Assembly: GCA_964367575.1 (NCBI GenBank)
Contig: CAYIYF010000001.1
Coordinates: 1 to 33,785, forward strand
From: Candidatus Woesearchaeota archaeon
GTDB taxonomy: Archaea > Nanobdellota > Nanobdellia > SCGC-AAA011-G17 > UBA489
Direction: 5' to 3'
DNA length: 33,785 bases
How positions within the stretch are numbered: position 1 is the first letter of the stretch; the number at the start of each line of letters is the position of its first letter. Position numbers and translations under genes: made by a program. Positions 918 to 10,727 of the stretch are shown here, in pieces. Below the pieces are notes generated by a model. The model saw only the letters and a list, made by a program, of their open reading frames with translations, did no database searches and was not told where the DNA came from.

Positions 918-2714
918 ATGCCATCACTACCACAGCCAGGAGAAACAAATTGGGGAAATAAGTTAAATGAATTTATTCTTACAGGACATAACATAGATGG
1001 CACATTGAAAGGAGTTTTTTCAGGTGTTCTTAATCCGAAAGACTTTGGAGCTAAGGGCGATGGATTAAATAATGATGCTCCTGCATTCCAGGCGATGGTT
1101 GATAGTGTACCTGCTAATGGACGTGCATCAGTCGTAATCCCTCCTGGCACTTACAAACTCAACACAGTCATTACTGTAACGAATAAATTCATTTCTTGGT
1201 ATGGGTGCGGTCCGAATGTCACAGAACTGCGCTTTTTAACGAGTGGATTTGATGTTAATGCTCCAACAGCTGATCCGAATGGCAAGCCAACACTGCTCAT
1301 CAAAGACATGAGCATCTTGTCAATAGGAATTGTTACTAATGGAGTGACTCCTAATACGTTCGCTATAAAATATCGCGGTACAACAACAACTGGAATTGGT
1401 GGCAGTGCACTACTAGCTTCGAACCTTGTAATCGAGGGTCTTGATTGGAACAATAATGCCTTCGGAGTAATCTTTGACATCGCTGATTGCCAGAAGGGAC
1501 GCATAGAAAATGTTATGGCACTCGGCAAGAATGGAGTCCACGTAGCAGACCCTAATGACCCGACAAGCACTACAGCATACTTTGTCAAGATTGGCAGGAA
1601 TTCAACTGGACTGCAGATTCATCACTGCGAAATTTTCTTAGTGCATACATGCGTTGGAATCTTGGATGGAACTTCAGAAGGCATTTATGTATCAGATTGC
1701 ATCTTTGTGAAATGTCATCGGGGTGTTGTAGCTGATAAGTCTCTCACTGGTGGTGCGATGGGAGGACTACAAGTCTTTCGCAACCACATAGCAGTTTTCA
1801 AAGAGGCTGTGCTGCTCATACGAGGTAGTACAGGTACTGGAGTAAATGAAGTTCACATAAGTGAGAACTACATCCTGCCACGCGGAGATGCTCTTGCTAC
1901 TGAAGCGTCTGTTGGCATTAAAGTTGGTGGCGAACGCATCCACATCACTAACAATCTTTTATTATTAAACACAGGGGGTCCTGGTGCTTCTTATACTGGC
2001 ATCACAATTGACTCTGCTTCTGGTGGTCCAGAGGTGAATGTAGTTACTGGAAATATAATTCAAAACTACAATAACAACGCTTCTATCATTCTTGCTGCTG
2101 GTACGCAGGGGAATGTAATCACTAGTAACATAATCAATGGCACTGGCGGAATTTTGGACAATGGCGTGCCTGCTTCAGACAATCCAAACATAATACGCTT
2201 CAACATTGGATCCAACGCAAACAAAATGGATATATGCCGTGTGAAGAAGTCAGTAACTCAGGCAATTCCTAACACTGATCCGTCAACATACCAAGGAACA
2301 CAAGTTACTTTCGACACTGAAATCTTTGACCGTTTTAACACTTTCAATGCTGCAGGCAGTTATATCTCAATACCCGGTGGCGTGACACAAGTTCGCCTGA
2401 CAGCTGGCGTGCGCTTTGATGTGCCTTCAGGTACGACGAATACAAATAGCGGTATCTACTCATTGGCAATCTTCAAATCCAATCCTGCTACCGACGTATT
2501 AATCTGCAGGCAGGTAATCGAATCAACTTCAGGCAAAGGAATCAAGAATCCTGATGGCAGTGGAGACGGAATAGCTTTGTGCGTGGACTCTGGTGTTATA
2601 ACAACAACCGGAGGCGAGCAATTTTCTATTTGGGTTCATCAACATACCGACGATACAACATTAAATATTTTAAATACTCCAGAAACTTTCTTTTCTGTTG
2701 AGTTCCATAGATGA
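918..2714 (+). CDS. pectate-lyase-superfamily right-handed beta-helix protein (tailspike/depolymerase-like) with a possible jelly-roll C-terminal domain
   Basis: NPKDFGAKGDGLNNDAPAFQAMVDS...VVIPPGTYKL is the typical N-terminal signature of Pectate_lyase_3-type beta-helix proteins. Gly/Asn/Ile-rich beta-helix-like repeats follow. No signal peptide of its own. Confidence 0.75.
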   Translation: MPSLPQPGETNWGNKLNEFILTGHNIDGTLKGVFSGVLNPKDFGAKGDGLNNDAPAFQAMVDSVPANGRASVVIPPGTYKLNTVITVTNKFISWYGCGPNVTELRFLTSGFDVNAPTADPNGKPTLLIKDMSILSIGIVTNGVTPNTFAIKYRGTTTTGIGGSALLASNLVIEGLDWNNNAFGVIFDIADCQKGRIENVMALGKNGVHVADPNDPTSTTAYFVKIGRNSTGLQIHHCEIFLVHTCVGILDGTSEGIYVSDCIFVKCHRGVVADKSLTGGAMGGLQVFRNHIAVFKEAVLLIRGSTGTGVNEVHISENYILPRGDALATEASVGIKVGGERIHITNNLLLLNTGGPGASYTGITIDSASGGPEVNVVTGNIIQNYNNNASIILAAGTQGNVITSNIINGTGGILDNGVPASDNPNIIRFNIGSNANKMDICRVKKSVTQAIPNTDPSTYQGTQVTFDTEIFDRFNTFNAAGSYISIPGGVTQVRLTAGVRFDVPSGTTNTNSGIYSLAIFKSNPATDVLICRQVIESTSGKGIKNPDGSGDGIALCVDSGVITTTGGEQFSIWVHQHTDDTTLNILNTPETFFSVEFHR

Positions 2715-2739: not shown

Positions 2740-3405
2740 TCAACATATCTCAATAAAATCTCGAGGAACTATGGTCATAATTTCATAACCTTCCTTTTTG
2801 ACAAGTAAAGTATCCTCAATTCGTATCCCGAATTTTTCTTTTTTATTTGAAATATAAATTCCAGGTTCTATGGTAATAAAATCTCCTTCCCTCAAAAAAT
2901 CATTGCTTTTTGGATGCAATTTTGGTTTGATATGGATATGTTTTCCTACGCCATGCCCCAGTCCATGCATATAATATTTTTTGTAACGTCCAAGCAAGTC
3001 TCTTGAATATCTGTCAAGTTCAAAGCCACTTACACCGTCTCTTACTTTTTGCACACATTTCCACTGGCATTTTTTTATTAAATCATAAAGTTTTTTCTCT
3101 TTACTATTTGCCTTTCCAATAAAGACCGTTCTTGTCATATCTGTGCAGTAGCCATTAACCTTGGAACCAAAATCAAGAATTAAAAAACCTCGAGAAAAAT
3201 TTATATCTCTTGGTTTGGCATGGACTAGACTGTTATTATTGGCAACTATTGGGGGATATGAACTTCCAACACCATAATCTTTAAATCTCTTTAAAATGTA
3301 ATCCCTCACATCATTTTCCTTTTCAAAATTAAAATCCTTAGTGATCTCATTAAATATACTGGCATTAATTTTGCATGCTTTTTTTACGCTTTGATATTGG
3401 TTCAT
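2740..3405 (-). CDS. M24-family metallopeptidase (Xaa-Pro peptidase/prolidase-like, catalytic domain only)
   Basis: Pita-bread metal-ligand pattern: LDFGSKVNGYCTDMTRT (Asp, Asp), HGLGHGVG (His), TIEPGIY (Glu), IRIEDT (Glu). Confidence 0.8.
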   Translation of the reverse strand: MNQYQSVKKACKINASIFNEITKDFNFEKENDVRDYILKRFKDYGVGSSYPPIVANNNSLVHAKPRDINFSRGFLILDFGSKVNGYCTDMTRTVFIGKANSKEKKLYDLIKKCQWKCVQKVRDGVSGFELDRYSRDLLGRYKKYYMHGLGHGVGKHIHIKPKLHPKSNDFLREGDFITIEPGIYISNKKEKFGIRIEDTLLVKKEGYEIMTIVPRDFIEIC

Positions 3406-4265: not shown

Positions 4266-4501
4266 TGGTTATAATGTAATTGAATATATTAAGGTAACCT
4301 AAGCTTCTTAGAACAATGGTATAGACACTCCGAATAGTAGAGTGAGGGGTTATTGGTAGCTTTTAGAAAATCAACCAACAGAAGTTAGGTTAAACAATGA
4401 ACTTTTTGATAAAGTCCTTAACCCCCTTATTTGAGAAGACCTCTTTAAAAAGAGTGTCATTACAAAATCTTTTTAAGATAACTCTAACATCTCAGTTCTT
4501 A

Positions 4502-4819
4502 ATGTTTGTTGTCATTGAAACCAAAACGTACCAAGAAGAGTTAGATAAATGGACAAAAGCTGACAAAGAAGCTGCTAAAAAATTACCACAAAAACTATCC
4601 GAAAATCCATTCGTTGGAAAGCAACTCACGTACAAATTTCTCAGAGAAAAGCACATTGGTGGGAGAAGAGTTTACTACCTCATTTATGAAGATTTTAATC
4701 TTGTGCTGCTGGTTGCCACAAGCGAGAAAAAAGATCAACAAGCGACTATCGACCATATCAAAGGCAACTTGGATGATCTTAAAGCTCTCGCTGAAAAGAT
4801 ATCTAAGCAACTCTCTTAA
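4502..4819 (+). CDS. RelE/ParE-like toxin-fold protein, paralogue 1
   Basis: Track ORF 4397..4819; the likely start is the internal ATG at 4502 (MFVVIETKTYQEELDKW...), giving 105 aa against 104 aa for the paralogue at 5173. ENPFVGKQLTYKFLREKHIGGRRVYYLIYEDFNLVLLVATSEKKDQ resembles the RelE/ParE core. A TATA-like tttttaagat lies about 25 nt upstream. Confidence 0.55.
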   Translation: MFVVIETKTYQEELDKWTKADKEAAKKLPQKLSENPFVGKQLTYKFLREKHIGGRRVYYLIYEDFNLVLLVATSEKKDQQATIDHIKGNLDDLKALAEKISKQLS

Positions 4820-4943
4820 AACGACCTTTCTTTAAGTCTTCTAAACTGTTTTTGAATTGTCTTATTAAATCAAAGTCTATTTCTTCTAATTTTTTCAAAC
4901 GTTTGTATTCTTCTTTCGAAATACTAATCATTTCTTGTTCCAT
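4803..4943 (-). CDS. 46-aa ribbon-helix-helix-like mini-protein, putative antitoxin/regulator, copy 1
   Basis: Not in the track (too short). Hand translation: MEQEMISISKEEYKRLKKLEEIDFDLIRQFKNSLEDLKKGRFKRVA*. A short beta-strand (ISIS) followed by a helix is RHH-like. Convergent with the RelE-like gene, with a 17-nt 3' overlap. Confidence 0.5.
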   Translation of the reverse strand: MEQEMISISKEEYKRLKKLEEIDFDLIRQFKNSLEDLKKGRFKRVA

Positions 4944-4963
4944 TGTAATTACATTATTGCTGT

Positions 4964-5006
4964 AACTTGTTTATAAGTTTTGCTCGTAGGTGCGATGAGC
5001 CATTTT
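4964..5006. repeat. 43-nt block identical to 5641..5683 (upstream region of the RHH-like mini-gene)
   Basis: aacttgtttataagttttgctcgtaggtgcgatgagccatttt occurs identically at both sites. It contains a TATA-like cttataaacaag (minus strand) and the imperfect inverted repeat gctcgt-N7-atgagc. Confidence 0.8.
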
Positions 5007-5057
5007 AGAATACTTCGAGAAGGCTTGAGATTGCTAAATTCAAAGACCTTTATAAGT

Positions 5058-5088
5058 AAAAACAGGATGAGCCGAGGAATACCTGAAC
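5058..5088 (-). pseudogene. fragment copying the 3' end plus trailer of tRNA-Val (compare 8576..8606)
   Basis: aaaaacaggatgagccgaggaatacctgaac against aaaaaccggatgagccgaggaggatttgaac: 26 of 31 identical by hand alignment, same orientation. The T-stem is destroyed, so it is not a functional tRNA. Confidence 0.6.
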
Positions 5089-5172
5089 GTTAAAGGTTCA
5101 AGTCCTTCCTGGTTTTATTCAGTTCTCTCCTCATGACACAATCTTTTTATAATTGCCTCTTTTCTTTTTATC

Positions 5173-5487
5173 ATGTTTAGGGTTTTTAGATCTGAATGGT
5201 ATGAGAAAAAGTTGAAAAAACTCGACAAAGATTATCAAGAGAGAGTTTTTACTTTCGAGCAACATCTCAAAAATGAACCTTATTCTGGAAAGCCTCTAGG
5301 CTATACATTTTTTAGGGAGAAAAAGTTCAATGGAAATAGGTTGCTTTTTCTTGTTTATGAAGAGCATAACGTTGTCTTTTTAGTCACGTTAACAAATAAA
5401 AAAGCACAACCGCACGAAATTGACTTAATTAAAGCTAATCTTGATGTGTATAAAGAAACGATACAACGATTAGTTAAAAATCTTTAG
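5173..5487 (+). CDS. RelE/ParE-like toxin-fold protein, paralogue 2
   Basis: MFRVFRSEWYEKKLKKL...NEPYSGKPLGYTFFREKKFNGNRLLFLVYEEHNVVFLVTLTNKKAQ is collinear with the 4502..4819 product. Confidence 0.55.
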   Translation: MFRVFRSEWYEKKLKKLDKDYQERVFTFEQHLKNEPYSGKPLGYTFFREKKFNGNRLLFLVYEEHNVVFLVTLTNKKAQPHEIDLIKANLDVYKETIQRLVKNL

Positions 5488-5621
5488 ACTTCTTTTACTT
5501 TCCCTGAAAGAATATCCTTGATGCCTCTTGCTATGTCATCCAAGAGTTCTTGATCTACTTTTGCCATTTTCTTTAATTCTTCATATTCTTTTTTTGGTAT
5601 CTTAATCATTTCTTGTTCCAT
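5484..5621 (-). CDS. 45-aa RHH-like mini-protein, copy 2
   Basis: Hand translation: MEQEMIKIPKKEYEELKKMAKVDQELLDDIARGIKDILSGKVKEV*. Its stop overlaps the stop of the convergent 5173..5487 gene by 4 nt. Confidence 0.5.
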   Translation of the reverse strand: MEQEMIKIPKKEYEELKKMAKVDQELLDDIARGIKDILSGKVKEV

Positions 5622-5640
5622 TGTAATTATGTAACTGTTT

Positions 5641-5683
5641 AACTTGTTTATAAGTTTTGCTCGTAGGTGCGATGAGCCATTTT
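5641..5683. repeat. second copy of the invariant 43-nt block
   Basis: Identical to 4964..5006. The similarity extends with mismatches over roughly 4921..5040 and 5599..5720. Confidence 0.8.
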
Positions 5684-5766
5684 GGAATGCTTTTAGAGAG
5701 CTTAAAACGCTAGAATTTTATTTATAAAAACATCCTGTTTATTTAAAAGCAACATAAATTAAAAAA

Positions 5767-6267
5767 TCATTTCCATCGCATCTTATGCTCAATTAAGATT
5801 GCTTCTAAAGGTTTCACATCAAACCTAGTAACTGCAAGTCTTCCATCATATCTTGCTTCGGCAATCCAAGAAGACCAAGAAGGCAAGAATTGTGTGGAAA
5901 AATCCTTGATAGTAAACACATTTGATTTATAGATTGGCATATACTCAACGCTTGCTTCAACTGTATGAAAATCAGGAATGTTTCCATGATGAACTTTATT
6001 ATTTTCCCAAAATACTGGTTTGCCAGCATTATCTACACCATATGCACGAAAGGAGAGATGCAACTTTGCATCATTTTCAAAATTTTGTGCATCATTAAAC
6101 TTTAATCTTGTCCCTTTAACAATTATATCGCTATCTGAAGCAACAGAACTGCCATCTGGAGTGGTAATAAATGAAAATTCATTAGGTTCATGCAAATATC
6201 TTTCGTTTAAACTTCCACATGCAGCAACATACAATACTCCTGCACCAAAAAATAAGGATTTTTTCAT
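5767..6267 (-). CDS. putative lipoprotein, function unknown
   Basis: Track ORF 5767..6318. The internal start at 6267 gives MKKSLFFGAGVLYVAACGS, a signal peptide with a lipobox-like VAAC. It directly follows the metzincin gene on the same strand. Confidence 0.5.
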   Translation of the reverse strand: MKKSLFFGAGVLYVAACGSLNERYLHEPNEFSFITTPDGSSVASDSDIIVKGTRLKFNDAQNFENDAKLHLSFRAYGVDNAGKPVFWENNKVHHGNIPDFHTVEASVEYMPIYKSNVFTIKDFSTQFLPSWSSWIAEARYDGRLAVTRFDVKPLEAILIEHKMRWK

Positions 6268-6318: not shown

Positions 6319-8433
6319 CTAAGGGCAAGGAGGGTCTGTATTTACACATTGACATTTTTCACAGGGCTGGTCATAACAATACTGATATTCATCTCCCTGA
6401 GCATCAGTGCATGTTTTACAACCTACAGGACAATCTTCTGTAGAAGAACATAGTCCAATGCCACTTATAGGCATATTATCGAGAGTTTCACAGGATATGC
6501 ACTCCCATGGGCCTGCCCCATTATTGCCTCCAATGCCTCCACAAACAGCATTGTCACCACAATCTTCATCACTGCAACATTGATTGCCAGTAAGTTGAAT
6601 ATTAGGATCGTTGCAGCCATACAATTGCCCTGCCCCTGTGCTATCACCAGCACCAACTCTAGGTGGCCTTGGACTCATACCAGGGGGAGGGGGCGCTGGG
6701 GGAATTATAGGGTTACCGCCAGGAGCTGCTGGAGATGTTGTATCTGGTGGAATTGGTTGACATATACAAGGTTGCGCAGATGATCCTGGAACTACTGGGC
6801 CAATTGTACAATAAAGATCTTCATTGGGCCATTTCACAATACCATCTTCTGGTTCTGCCTTAATACACTTTGTAAGAATGTTTGCTGGAGAATATTGTCC
6901 AGGTGCAACATCAACTATGCTCCTTTCGCATTCATCGAACTCTCCGCCCATGCCATTGCCACAAGCAAACTCATTGCTAGTTACAACTTTATTAACACCA
7001 AACTCAGGATTTTGCCATAATGTTGTGCTTTCAAAAACCATTTTTTCTTTTGGATCCCCGCACATATGCCCATTAAGTATACGCGCCTGATTAACATTAA
7101 GATTTTTATTGTTATTATCACAATTTTGAAGTACACACATTAATCCCTGAGAATCTTGATGATCTAAGCCCATAGAATGTGCAAGTTCGTGCGCTACAGT
7201 GAAACCAGTAGTATATGACTCTGGACAAACGCTTGAAGGATTTGTAAAAGAATTACTATCAAATACCATATACCCTTTAGTAGGCATAGTATAACCACAC
7301 TTAATAAAAATGGATGAATTGGATGAATTTGCTGCTACACCTATCAGGTCTACCAATAAAATCATCTCCTTATTATTTGGTTTTTTCATAAACGTATATG
7401 TAGGTGTAGATGGATGATATACTGGAATGCCATCCACAAAAATATCCTCAAACAGAGTTTGTTGTGATGTTTCAGTAAGCAGATTAATAATGCCCACAAT
7501 GTTGCCACCAGTATCTTTTATAGGAGTAAAAAGAGGGTGGGGAACATGAAGTTCATCTTCCCAGTAATCCAAAGGAAATCCAATGGCAATAACTTCATTA
7601 AAATCTTTATTAAATCCATGAAATTGGTCTTGTGTTAGCTCTGCATTAATATGATCAATTCCCTGCTCAAGCTTTTGCTTAAATGCGAGCCCTTTTTGAT
7701 AATTAAGATTCATCAAACTATCTAAATCATCGGCTGGATGAGTGCCATAAATACCACTATAATAAAAGAAAGGAACATATAACCTTCCCCTGTATGTTGA
7801 ACAAAAAGAACCTACCATGGTAGAACTAATAGTGTCCTTCTTATAATTATAATCTACAGAATAATCTAAAGAAGACTTTTTTTTCATATTAGAAAGATCA
7901 CTATATTTGAAGATGCCATTATTATTTTTGGCATCTCCCTTTATTTCAAAACTTGTTTTGATTGTTTTTTCCCATCTTGATGTTACAATGCGCGCCTCCA
8001 TGCTGTGCTTGCCAATATCTAAACCAATTGGAGGAATAATGTAACCAGTAGATATTATATAGGCACTAAAATATGGAATAACTTCCGGACTTGTCCTCAC
8101 AGTTTTACCATCCACCATAAGTTCAAACTCAAGAAGTTCAAAATAACTGTCATAAATAAGTATTTTAGCATCATAAAAAACATCGGAATATCCTCCAAAC
8201 TCACTGCCACCATCATTTCTTGGATCTAGAAATTCAACAATGACATCAGGTCCTTTCTGCGCACTTTCAAATGAATTCTGTGCGATATTCTTGGTGTTAA
8301 AAATGTTATTCCATTGAAAAAATTTTCCAGTAAGACCTATTGGCGTTATAGAAGAAGCAAAAAATGCCAAGATCAAAATCGCCCCTACAACTAAAAAGAA
8401 TCTTACCCCCCCACTATTTTTGACACCCCTCAT
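6319..8433 (-). CDS. secreted/anchored metzincin zinc protease (matrixin-like motif) with a Pro-rich linker and Cys-rich C-terminal module
   Basis: N-terminal hydrophobic segment VRFFLVVGAILILAFFASS. VAHELAHSMGLDHQDSQGLMC gives HExxHxxGxxH plus a following Met, close to the MMP consensus HEFGHSLGLDHS...ALM. Linker PPDTTSPAAPGGNPIIPPAPPPPGMSPRPP. The last ~100 aa carry more than 20 Cys. Confidence 0.75.
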   Translation of the reverse strand: MRGVKNSGGVRFFLVVGAILILAFFASSITPIGLTGKFFQWNNIFNTKNIAQNSFESAQKGPDVIVEFLDPRNDGGSEFGGYSDVFYDAKILIYDSYFELLEFELMVDGKTVRTSPEVIPYFSAYIISTGYIIPPIGLDIGKHSMEARIVTSRWEKTIKTSFEIKGDAKNNNGIFKYSDLSNMKKKSSLDYSVDYNYKKDTISSTMVGSFCSTYRGRLYVPFFYYSGIYGTHPADDLDSLMNLNYQKGLAFKQKLEQGIDHINAELTQDQFHGFNKDFNEVIAIGFPLDYWEDELHVPHPLFTPIKDTGGNIVGIINLLTETSQQTLFEDIFVDGIPVYHPSTPTYTFMKKPNNKEMILLVDLIGVAANSSNSSIFIKCGYTMPTKGYMVFDSNSFTNPSSVCPESYTTGFTVAHELAHSMGLDHQDSQGLMCVLQNCDNNNKNLNVNQARILNGHMCGDPKEKMVFESTTLWQNPEFGVNKVVTSNEFACGNGMGGEFDECERSIVDVAPGQYSPANILTKCIKAEPEDGIVKWPNEDLYCTIGPVVPGSSAQPCICQPIPPDTTSPAAPGGNPIIPPAPPPPGMSPRPPRVGAGDSTGAGQLYGCNDPNIQLTGNQCCSDEDCGDNAVCGGIGGNNGAGPWECISCETLDNMPISGIGLCSSTEDCPVGCKTCTDAQGDEYQYCYDQPCEKCQCVNTDPPCP

Positions 8434-8585: not shown

Positions 8586-8690
8586 TGAGCCGAGGAGGAT
8601 TTGAACCTCCGACCCATACCTTGTAAGGGTATTGCCATCTGCAGGGCCTCAAACATTGTCTTAAAGACCTAACCGCTAGGCCACCGGCTC
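8586..8690 (-). tRNA. tRNA-Val(UAC) with a 32-nt non-canonical intron in the D-loop (intron 8639..8670)
   Basis: Hand fold of the minus strand: acceptor GAGCCGG/TCGGCTC, anticodon arm ATACC-CTTACAA-GGTAT, T-arm GGAGG-TTCAAAT-CCTCC, discriminator A. Total 105 nt against 73 nt expected. BHB: central helix GCGG/CTGC, 3-nt bulges TTA and AGA, 6-bp inner helix GGTCTT/GAGGCC. The spliced product is 73 nt. Confidence 0.7.
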
Positions 8691-9719: not shown

Positions 9720-10727
9720 ATGCTCATAAAAAAAGTAGACAGAGATCTTGCAAGAATTGTAAAAAAGATAGGCAACTCTCATTTCAACCCAATAAATGCA
9801 AAAGATGAGATGATTAAAACATTTAATGATAATAATTACAATCCAAAACTCAAGTACCTTCCTCAAAATAAGAACATTGAAAGTATTGATAAAAAATTGC
9901 TTGCACTAAGAACTGACAATAGTGTTTTTGGAATGCTTTTGAAGAAAAAAATAATTGAACTGCATAACATATTTCTTATGATCAAGAACACTGGAAAAGA
10001 AGGATTTACTGAATACTCGATAAAAGTCTATGGAGCACCAAAACCAGAACTAGTAAATGAAGCTAGAAAAATATTAAAAATAGATGAAGAAGAGGTGTGG
10101 ACAAAATACTCAAGACTTTCAATGACAAAAGCTTTTTCTGACCATTTCAAAATAAATAAACTTGACTGGAAAATAAAAGAAAAGGAGATGGTTGCTGGTG
10201 CTGCAATTGATTCAAAAAGAAAATCGTTGATAATAAACAAGAATAAGGATTTCAGCGAAAATGATGTCAAAAGACTTATGATCCATGAGATAGGAACACA
10301 TGTGACAAGGTTTGAAAATGGAAAAAAGCAAAAACACAAGATGTTTTCCTTTGGCTTTCCAGGATATCTTGATACTGAAGAGGGGCTTGCTGCCTACAAT
10401 GAATATCGTGCAGGACTGCTTTCTCCGAAGATATTAAGGATGTATGCCGGAAGAGTTCTAGCAAATGACATGGCATTAAAAAGCAGCTTCAGTGTGGTAT
10501 ATAATACTCTGCTTGAACACTTTACAAGGTATGATGCGTGGACATTGGCATTAAGATCAAAAAGAGGTTTAAGTGATACCTCAAAGAAAGGAGGGTTTAC
10601 AAAAGATCATCTTTACCTGAAAGGATTTTTAAAAGTCAAGGACTTTGCTGAGAAAGGCGGGGATATGAAGAAGCTTTATACTGGAAAAATTGGTGTTGAA
10701 CATGTTCCTTATCTAGAGGATATTTGA
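9720..10727 (+). CDS. DUF1704-family (QEGLA-motif, tyrosine/phenylalanine carboxypeptidase-like) metalloprotein
   Basis: LMIHEIGTHVTRFENG (HExxH) followed by TEEGLAAYNE (the family's xEGLA motif). Confidence 0.55.
   Translation: MLIKKVDRDLARIVKKIGNSHFNPINAKDEMIKTFNDNNYNPKLKYLPQNKNIESIDKKLLALRTDNSVFGMLLKKKIIELHNIFLMIKNTGKEGFTEYSIKVYGAPKPELVNEARKILKIDEEEVWTKYSRLSMTKAFSDHFKINKLDWKIKEKEMVAGAAIDSKRKSLIINKNKDFSENDVKRLMIHEIGTHVTRFENGKKQKHKMFSFGFPGYLDTEEGLAAYNEYRAGLLSPKILRMYAGRVLANDMALKSSFSVVYNTLLEHFTRYDAWTLALRSKRGLSDTSKKGGFTKDHLYLKGFLKVKDFAEKGGDMKKLYTGKIGVEHVPYLEDI

Follow-up and report, generated by a model that had tools for sequence, protein, structure and literature searches.

The stretch of DNA analysed here, referred to as the window, comprises positions 1 to 33,785 (33,785 nucleotides, nt) of contig CAYIYF010000001.1 in assembly GCA_964367575.1, from a Candidatus Woesearchaeota archaeon. 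It carries two gene modules at a spacing of 677-678 bp. Each consists of a plus-strand gene for a toxin-like protein of 104-105 amino acids (aa) and a minus-strand gene for a protein of 45-46 aa (the mini protein), and the 3' ends of the two genes overlap. The features of the two modules, with the genes given as open reading frames (ORFs), are listed below.

4457-4501, plus strand: promoter of toxin-like gene 1, with a TATA-like box, TTTTTAAGAT, at 4470-4479 (roughly 32 nt upstream of the start codon)
4502-4819, plus strand: toxin-like gene 1, an ORF of 105 aa, subfamily A (17-nt overlap type)
4803-4943, minus strand: mini-antitoxin-like gene 1, an ORF of 46 aa that converges on toxin-like gene 1
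4803-4819, coding on both strands: the 3' overlap of module 1, 17 nt by coordinates
4924-4951, minus strand: copy 1 of a 28-nt identical segment, containing codons 1-6 of mini gene 1 (MEQEMI), 2 nt of codon 7 and 8 nt of 5' flank
4963-5006, minus strand: copy 1 of a 44-nt invariant block, containing the predicted core promoter of mini gene 1 and about 23 nt upstream of it
5131-5172, plus strand: promoter of toxin-like gene 2, with a TATA-like box, TTTTTATAAT, at 5144-5153
5173-5487, plus strand: toxin-like gene 2, an ORF of 104 aa, subfamily B (4-nt overlap type)
5484-5621, minus strand: mini-antitoxin-like gene 2, an ORF of 45 aa that converges on toxin-like gene 2
5602-5629, minus strand: copy 2 of the 28-nt segment, containing the first codons of mini gene 2 and its 5' flank
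5640-5683, minus strand: copy 2 of the 44-nt block, containing the predicted core promoter of mini gene 2 (TATA at 5647-5654) and the upstream part

The two convergent pairs, with overlaps of 17 and 4 nt, had been reported in a preliminary description of this DNA, and the ORFs confirm their coordinates. The shorter overlap is the tetranucleotide TTAG, inside which both stop codons of module 2 lie. A longer in-frame ORF starting at 4397 exists for toxin-like gene 1. This start is unlikely to be the one used, because the family begins at MF and a TATA box is located about 30 nt before 4502. The coding sequences of the modules have diverged strongly, as had been claimed: the two toxin-like proteins are 39% identical and the two mini proteins 42% identical, and the coding parts share 56-60% of their nucleotides. 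The first six codons of the mini genes are the same in both modules, being part of the 28-nt run, and the block upstream of them is indeed invariant, although its length is 44 nt rather than the 43 nt originally given. The 8 nt of 5' flank within the 28-nt segment likely correspond to the 5' end of the mini gene mRNA. A 19-nt repeat, 89% identical between 4457-4475 and 5131-5149, is also present in the two toxin promoters.

Neither module is peculiar to the window. Toxin 1 has 262 homologues, mostly of 105 aa, and toxin 2 has 318, mostly of 104-105 aa; a few of them carry an organism name, namely Woesearchaeota, Nanoarchaeota, Pacearchaeota or Aenigmarchaeota. A profile search of 1.84 billion cluster representatives yielded 440 clusters of the large-protein family (counted at 50% identity) at E <= 0.001, and relatives are encoded at 213 places in the genomes of GTDB species. 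Eighty of these 213 loci (homologous loci are designated by L numbers below) were inspected for a partner gene, that is, for a minus-strand ORF at the 3' end of the toxin gene. One contig ends too early to be evaluated, and an intact convergent mini gene was found in every one of the other 79 loci. Hence the convergent, 3'-overlapping layout with separate promoters, which had been described for the window, is general. No co-directional small partner is conserved upstream of the toxin gene. In a first pass, which comprised 68 loci, the overlap is 17 nt in 39, 4 nt in 18, 27 or 32 nt in 6 and near zero in a few. The gene neighbourhoods differ from locus to locus, and the pair therefore moves as a unit.

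The earlier idea of a tandem duplication did not survive this comparison. The two window modules are representatives of two old subfamilies, the 17-nt type (A) and the 4-nt type (B), with hundreds of members each, and are not recent duplicates; the arrangement in the module-2 orthologues L090 and L092 is the same as that in module 2. Tandem placement is rare, being found only in the window and in L025. In the latter locus, a second convergent module (1114-1422, plus strand, and approximately 1420-1560, minus strand), with a toxin 37% identical, is located 1.9 kb upstream of the main module. The mini promoters of both L025 modules have only the core AGAAAGATT(T)ATAAAG in common.

We consider it probable that the window carries two old paralogues of a convergent module, widespread in DPANN archaea, in which a RelE-fold toxin is paired with a mini-antitoxin, and that the mini promoter block was copied from module 1 to module 2. 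The evidence for the fold of the large protein comes from structure prediction. The AlphaFold2 (AF2) model of toxin 1, made with a 33-sequence alignment, has a predicted local distance difference test (pLDDT) score of 93.6. It contains strands at residues 3-6, 47-52, 55-62 and 67-75 and helices at residues 8-14, 19-26 and 28-34, so that N-terminal helices pack on an antiparallel sheet, as in the compact alpha/beta fold of RelE and ParE with its three or four strands; two additional C-terminal helices, beyond the RelE core, occupy residues 76-104. When this model was used in a Foldseek search, all 17 matches at E <= 0.001, and nearly all of the 50 matches listed, were RelE, HigB2, ParE, YafQ or related toxins, with the archaeal RelE proteins of Pyrococcus and Methanocaldococcus among the matches listed. 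The top matches (RelE, HigB2 and ParE) have target-normalised template modelling scores (TM-scores) of about 0.54-0.81 and E values down to 3.6e-5; for the RelE matches these scores are 0.74-0.81.

Sequence comparison is less favourable, and several of its results weigh against the assignment. The ParE_toxin profile PF05016 matches toxin 1 with an E value of 0.0045 and 18 bits, below its cutoff of 23. The same sub-threshold match is seen in 19 of 33 relatives, and in none of them does it rise above the cutoff. TIGR02683 scores 16.5 against a cutoff of 62.85, and a profile search of PDB sequences with the toxin alignment gave no relevant match. Alignment with E. coli RelE by hhalign has a probability of only 12%. 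In this same weak alignment, conserved basic residues lie opposite K52/K54, R61 and the R81 region of RelE, its basic catalytic region; the invariant or near-invariant polar residues of the large protein are R48, E49, R56, K76, K77, Q79 and H85. Thus, the RelE/ParE-like character proposed for the 105-aa protein is upheld by fold, while its support from sequence is weak. As modelled, the large protein is a member of the RelE/ParE fold superfamily and constitutes a distinct, uncurated family. No precomputed Pfam annotation exists on the family members listed. PADLOC gave no match, and an IMG/VR scan with toxin 1 revealed no relatives, hence no sign of viral origin.

A RelE fold does not by itself make a toxin. 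The module might have nothing to do with toxin-antitoxin systems, the large protein being a factor without toxicity, with a housekeeping or regulatory role (at the ribosome, for example) and with the small protein as its partner, and the layout being a result of genome compaction in DPANN archaea. Its conservation is high for a toxin (60-80% identity over many DPANN lineages), some copies, including those in the window, are found among housekeeping genes, and a co-directional operon, Pfam membership and a PADLOC match are all lacking. We nevertheless regard this explanation as unlikely. The genomic context is patchy and variable, several paralogues are possible per genome, other toxin-antitoxin pairs (MNT/HEPN) are present near some loci, and some of the partners carry a MazE/AbrB antitoxin domain. 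In addition, premature stop codons interrupt 10 of the 80 toxin genes (L014, L024, L031, L032, L039, L040, L044, L057, L064 and L072). These broken genes, which occupy about 3001-3318 in most of the loci, are otherwise well conserved and have a single stop each, except for L039 with two; TAA, TAG and TGA all occur, at varied positions. None of the 79 mini genes is broken, and those beside the broken toxin genes are intact in the nine loci where they are visible (in L057 the contig ends earlier). Such an imbalance, with stops in the toxin genes only, would be expected of a large protein that does harm when its partner is missing.

Several observations on the surroundings of the modules were also made. 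The window copies are flanked by an M24 peptidase/proline dehydrogenase pair and by uncharacterised genes. In two neighbourhoods of homologous modules (L001, 108-3793, and L006, 4678-5665), we found, in contrast, further genes of toxin-antitoxin or defence type, namely Fic, reverse transcriptase (RVT_1) and nucleotidyltransferase (NTP_transf_2) plus HEPN pairs. A few homologous modules (L036, L050, L077, L090 and L092) are directly beside complete tRNA genes. However, any tRNA is present in only 3 of 60 loci, and insertion beside tRNA genes was rejected as a general feature. A plus-strand sequence at 5093-5115, AAAGGTTCAAGTCCTTCCTGGTT, located between module 1 and the toxin 2 promoter, resembles a tRNA T-arm plus the 3' acceptor part and is called by neither ARAGORN nor Rfam. 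The possibility of an invertible segment was suggested by the small gene being called on different strands in L006 and L007, but the DNA is identical and only the gene calls differ. Many of the metagenome-assembled genomes (MAGs) carrying modules are titled "uncultured Methanosarcinales archaeon", and a few "bacterium" or "Zixiibacteriota", with modules close to those of Woesearchaeota and Nanoarchaeota; these titles probably reflect mis-assigned taxonomy or binning and not true hosts.

The mini gene occupies a fixed position in the homologous loci. Mini 1 has 73 homologues, and the consensus of the family is METVTIPKEEYERLKKLEQLDFDLIRQFASSLEDLKQGRFKRLA. Among 27 gap-free homologues, the mean pairwise differences at codon positions 1, 2 and 3 are 0.25, 0.10 and 0.55, and within the 17-nt overlap the variation sits on the third codon position of the mini gene. 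By this codon pattern, the mini gene is a real protein-coding gene under purifying selection. Its two halves appear to behave differently. Distances between mini proteins correlate with those between toxins at r = 0.83 for the C-terminal 27 aa and at r = 0.50 for the N-terminal 17 aa, a pattern that fits a putative C-terminal toxin-binding segment joined to an exchangeable N-terminus. Moreover, the convergent partners in L071, L074, L076, L083, L085 and L088 are 68 aa long. The two of these variants that were scanned begin with a MazE/AbrB domain (PF04014, 43.9 bits against a cutoff of 24.7), which is fused to the C-terminal motif of the family, D.DL..QF..SLEDLK.GR..RVA. An AbrB domain on the same C-terminal motif means that the N-terminal part of the antitoxin is exchangeable. 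A candidate antitoxin role of the mini protein is thus supported by the MazE/AbrB variants, the C-terminal covariation and the stop codons found in the toxin genes only. Adjacent small genes for a toxin and a putative cognate protein antitoxin, inherited together, are what was found throughout the family (79 of 79 loci, in varied contexts, with the covariation just given).

The mini protein had been described as ribbon-helix-helix (RHH)-like, and this description bears on what the invariant block might be. If the mini protein were an RHH-like repressor acting through its N-terminal strand, the block could be its operator, kept identical mainly by purifying selection for autoregulation and cross-regulation of both modules, with gene conversion being only the vehicle. 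The N-terminal pattern of the mini protein, TVTIPKEEYERLKKL, is reminiscent of the ribbon and helix 1 of an RHH protein, and two isolated weak matches, to PF02697 (VAPB_antitox, E 0.079) and NF010249 (PRK13696, E 0.069), are the sole ones behind this RHH-like N-terminus. However, a Pfam search with 46 mini members gave no match to any RHH family. In the AF2 model of the monomer (pLDDT 87.5), residues 1-9 are extended and residues 10-38 form one long helix, and a protein of 44 aa leaves little room for a DNA-binding fold plus a toxin-binding segment. The longer variants use AbrB/MazE instead, and the RHH assignment is not supported. A profile search of the PDB with the mini alignment gave no meaningful match. 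One JGI record labels a homologue of the mini protein "predicted CopG family antitoxin". The missing DNA-binding domain is also a difficulty for the reading that we favour: none was detected in the 44-46-aa protein by Pfam or in the AF2 monomer, and the mini protein is therefore no obvious reader of the conserved upstream block.

Archaeal TATA boxes are centred about 26 nt before the transcription start, with the B recognition element (BRE) just upstream of the TATA. A TATA-like box before each gene had been noted in the window, and such boxes proved to be general among the relatives. In 55% of the toxin genes and 70% of the mini genes, a sequence that fits the TATA pattern at 7 or more of 8 positions begins at -40 to -26, as compared with 6-7% in a control interval; the boxes peak at -31 to -27 before toxin starts and are general at -34 to -29 before mini starts. 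With the TATA about 30 nt before the ATG, both predicted mRNAs should be leaderless or nearly so. The coding regions overlap, and the predicted mRNAs would therefore be complementary at their 3' ends. When the first run of five T residues was taken as a crude transcript end, the complementary stretch was approximately 100-240 nt across loci and approximately 120-130 nt in each window module. A caution against our interpretation applies here, as the terminators of these archaea are uncharacterised and the length of the transcript overlap is a guess.

The complementarity of the two transcripts raises the possibility of an RNA antidote, as in type I systems: the minus-strand transcript would neutralise toxin expression by pairing to the toxin mRNA near its 3' end, the small ORF being secondary. 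A convergent 3' overlap is typical of several type I systems, and both the fixed overlap lengths and the predicted complementarity agree with such a scheme. Still, it seems to us very improbable. Where a type I system has a non-coding antisense RNA, the antisense gene here is protein-coding, with clear purifying selection at the protein level, and can be fused to an AbrB domain; the C-terminal half of its product covaries with the toxin protein. Furthermore, the toxin is a RelE-fold protein and not a small membrane peptide.

The layout may nevertheless matter in its own right. We tentatively propose, as a possibility and without much confidence, that the convergent arrangement is itself the regulatory mechanism, with duplex formation or polymerase collision setting the toxin:antitoxin ratio in a type I/II hybrid, and with the block common to co-resident paralogues joining several modules of this kind in one regulon. 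If this is true, a hybrid logic stands in for operon coupling and conditional cooperativity.

As to the block itself, it reads ...GGCTCATCGCACCTACGAGCAAAACTTATAAAC... on the minus strand, followed by about 25 nt and then by the ATG. Copy 1 contains a TATA (minus strand CTTATAAA) at 4970-4977, a BRE-like GCAAAA at 4978-4983 and an upstream part at 4984-5006. By these elements, the block is the predicted BRE/TATA promoter of the mini gene plus about 23-25 nt upstream, and it is neither a gene nor an RNA. Within the window, a 32-nt core of the block was found at two places only, and 100 shuffles yielded no match. The preliminary description had seen in it a hairpin or operator, GCTCGT-N7-ATGAGC, and had offered three explanations for its conservation: a shared regulatory element, an encoded RNA, or recent gene conversion limited to the control region. 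The hairpin did not hold up, since an inverted repeat as good as this one occurs in 41% of shuffled 44-mers, the block folded as single-stranded DNA (ssDNA) gave z-scores between -0.44 and +0.36 on both strands, revealing no structure beyond that of shuffles, and conservation of the repeat does not extend to L001, the orthologous locus. With no significant fold and no Rfam match in the block or modules (scan of 4300-5800, E up to 10, with chance-level matches elsewhere in the interval), an encoded RNA is not supported either; tRNA and tmRNA scans of the window also found nothing in the block or modules.

For similar reasons, we consider it extremely improbable, and largely refuted, that the block is a structural element, such as the gene of a small RNA, an attC site at the borders of integron cassettes or the terminal repeat of some mobile element. 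There is one block per module, at the same end each time, and in one subclade of the family a 16-mer, ACTTTTACCGAGAAAG, forms an inverted pair around the module; integrons with toxin-antitoxin cassettes have reportedly been found in DPANN-type archaea. However, the block contains a TATA and a BRE at the position that is general in the family, and the z-scores and the Rfam result just given speak against a long ssDNA hairpin or a known RNA; no integrase or other recombinase and no cassette array were seen among the neighbours checked. In addition, a metagenome scan with a degenerate version of the block pattern matched a single locus, L089, and the idea of a dispersed repeat was therefore rejected.

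Comparison with orthologues discriminates best between the explanations. The block is identical at 44 of 44 positions between modules 1 and 2, while between module 1 and its orthologue L001 only 29 of 44 positions (66%) agree. The coding sequences show the opposite trend, being 56-60% identical between the modules (as given above) and 79-90% identical between module 1 and L001, whose toxin is 83% identical to toxin 1. L001 has the MEQEMI start, and the block can still be recognised in it. In contrast, no such block precedes the mini genes of the module-2 orthologues L090, L092 and L093, the mini proteins of which begin with MAPETITI, MKTITI and MNETVTI, respectively, instead of MEQEMI. The toxin-2 promoter, ACACAATCTTTTTATAATT, is identical to the toxin promoter of L001, a type-A orthologue, and unlike the toxin promoters of L090, L092 and L093. 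The simplest reading is concerted evolution, in which a tract of approximately 110 nt, including the promoter and the first codons, would have been copied from module 1 to module 2; copy 2 of the block (5640-5683) would then be the recipient. Of the three explanations offered at the outset, gene conversion limited to the control region therefore fits the orthologue comparison best.

The copied tract is not as uniform as it should be, and this argues against a simple recent conversion. Inside it, the 11 nt between the TATA and the start agree at only 5 positions, in contrast to the perfect match of the 44 and 28 nt on either side, and past the block the identity falls to 16/24. Such a patch together with a gradual decay, instead of a uniform tract, needs either two events or selection. 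A further point on the negative side is that a long promoter block is common to only 2 of the 4 co-resident module pairs examined. The L046/L087 pair shares no promoter sequence, and L025 shares the promoter core only. The second positive case, an independent one, is in MAG CAZBGH01, where modules of type A (L020) and type B (L066), located on different contigs, have a different 38-nt promoter block in common, again with a variable spacer and with diverged coding cores.

These results bring back the operator hypothesis introduced above, in which the block is held constant by selection. The tract consists exactly of the N-terminal codons and the upstream block, with the TATA-to-start spacer inside it being variable, and the same mosaic is present in L020/L066; a mosaic in a second genome together with a variable spacer suggests that the block is functionally maintained, too. 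In the subclade with the 16-mer, ACTTTTACCGAGAAAG is located beside the TATA, on its upstream side, in both the toxin and the mini promoters (L020, L029, L033, L035 and L066; reduced to 13 nt in L035 and 10 nt in L033), and L030 has it at the toxin promoter only. Its distance to the ATG is about 40 nt on the toxin side and about 50 nt on the mini side, and it is found almost nowhere else in the 6-kb loci. With a copy at each of the convergent promoters, the 16-mer brackets the module as an inverted pair and could serve as an operator or mark the boundary of a mobile unit. However, a motif common to the toxin and mini promoters within a locus is significant in this subclade only and is near background family-wide. 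The block of module 1 is less conserved in L001 than the flanking coding sequence, and the palindrome is neither significant nor conserved. With the lack of any RHH family match added, we find the operator hypothesis doubtful in this form. The weaker claim of a shared regulatory element is plausible, in view of L020/L066: the data suggest that the upstream promoter part is a putative regulator-binding site, which co-resident modules tend to share, although not universally.

Returning to the paralogue and gene-conversion reading, we envisage the following: each gene would be transcribed from its own BRE/TATA promoter about 30 nt before the ATG, giving leaderless mRNAs; the large protein would act as a toxin, most likely as a ribosome-dependent mRNA endonuclease like RelE; the mini protein (44-51 aa) would bind and neutralise it through its C-terminal amphipathic helix and basic tail; the 3'-complementary mRNAs might couple the expression levels of the two genes, with antisense pairing or transcriptional interference replacing operon coupling; and gene conversion would have transferred the block and the first six codons from module 1 to module 2. 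As a result, both antitoxin genes would now be under the same promoter, with the same mRNA 5' end, and might be co-regulated by the shared block, which would also be kept by function, as a site for a regulator.

Among known systems, RelBE is the closest relative by fold. The toxin fold is the same in the RelBE complexes of E. coli (4FXE) and M. tuberculosis (RelBE1/2; 9G12 and 3G5O) and in the archaeal aRelE-aRelB complexes of P. horikoshii (1WMI) and M. jannaschii (3BPQ), and in both cases a toxin of about 100 aa has a small, largely helical partner; in the module described here, the C-terminal part of this partner covaries with the toxin. However, relBE is a bicistronic operon with the antitoxin gene first, whereas the genes described here are convergent and have separate promoters; the partner has only 44-51 aa and no detectable RHH domain; and the toxin carries the two-helix C-terminal extension (76-104) and remains under the Pfam and NCBIfam thresholds. 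In the minimalism of its antitoxin, the module is closest to PaaA2-ParE2. PaaR2-PaaA2-ParE2 (5CW7, among the Foldseek matches) likewise combines a RelE/ParE-fold toxin with an antitoxin that is short, consists mostly of helix and lacks a DNA-binding domain. The regulator of that system is supplied by a third, co-directional gene. Here, in contrast, no third gene is conserved, as the neighbourhoods differ.

The 68-aa variants are built like usual MazE/AbrB antitoxins (PF04014), with a DNA-binding N-terminus and a toxin-binding C-terminus, but the window minis and most of the family are without the domain, and only the C-terminal toxin-associated motif is common to all. By layout, the closest relatives are convergent type I systems (txpA/RatA, bsrG/SR4 and yonT/SR6 of B. 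subtilis; sprG/SprF of S. aureus) and the "excludon", which have the same 3'-overlapping antisense arrangement. They differ in that the antidote gene here encodes a conserved protein and the toxin has a RelE fold, while type I toxins are small hydrophobic peptides. With convergent genes and separate TATA boxes in place of a co-directional bicistronic operon, and a protein-coding gene in place of an antisense RNA, the module is neither a type II operon nor a type I RNA-antitoxin system. No description of a convergent RelE module with two protein components, or of this DPANN family, was found in the literature searched, which did not cover subscription journals.

The invariant block, which first drew attention to the locus, thus seems to be its ordinary part, a promoter homogenised by gene conversion, and the conserved tail-to-tail architecture is the interesting part. 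The biology of type II systems rests on the operon model, namely on co-transcription, translational coupling and autoregulation by the antitoxin-toxin complex, and search tools seek such systems as co-directional pairs. Convergent systems of the kind described here will be missed by operon-based surveys. With this family, it can be asked in a natural setting whether operon coupling is replaceable by antisense or convergent transcription, and the family provides a candidate addiction or defence module for the poorly understood, host-dependent DPANN archaea. The homogenisation of a promoter between paralogues would be a small, clean case of concerted evolution confined to a control region.

Three other features of the window may be mentioned. 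Rfam calls a third tRNA on the minus strand at 8586-8650 (32.6 bits, gathering score 29), which ARAGORN did not report. The minus-strand gene at 6319-8433 encodes a protein of 704 aa with an N-terminal hydrophobic segment, a proline-rich stretch and a cysteine-rich C-terminus. A matrixin-type metalloprotease motif is matched weakly and below the cutoff (PF00413, E 5e-4), and the protein is probably a secreted or surface protease. The plus-strand gene at 9720-10727 encodes a 335-aa protein that matches PF08014 (MATCAP, the microtubule-associated tyrosine carboxypeptidase family) with an E value of 2.5e-50, an unexpected finding in a contig from a DPANN-type archaeon.

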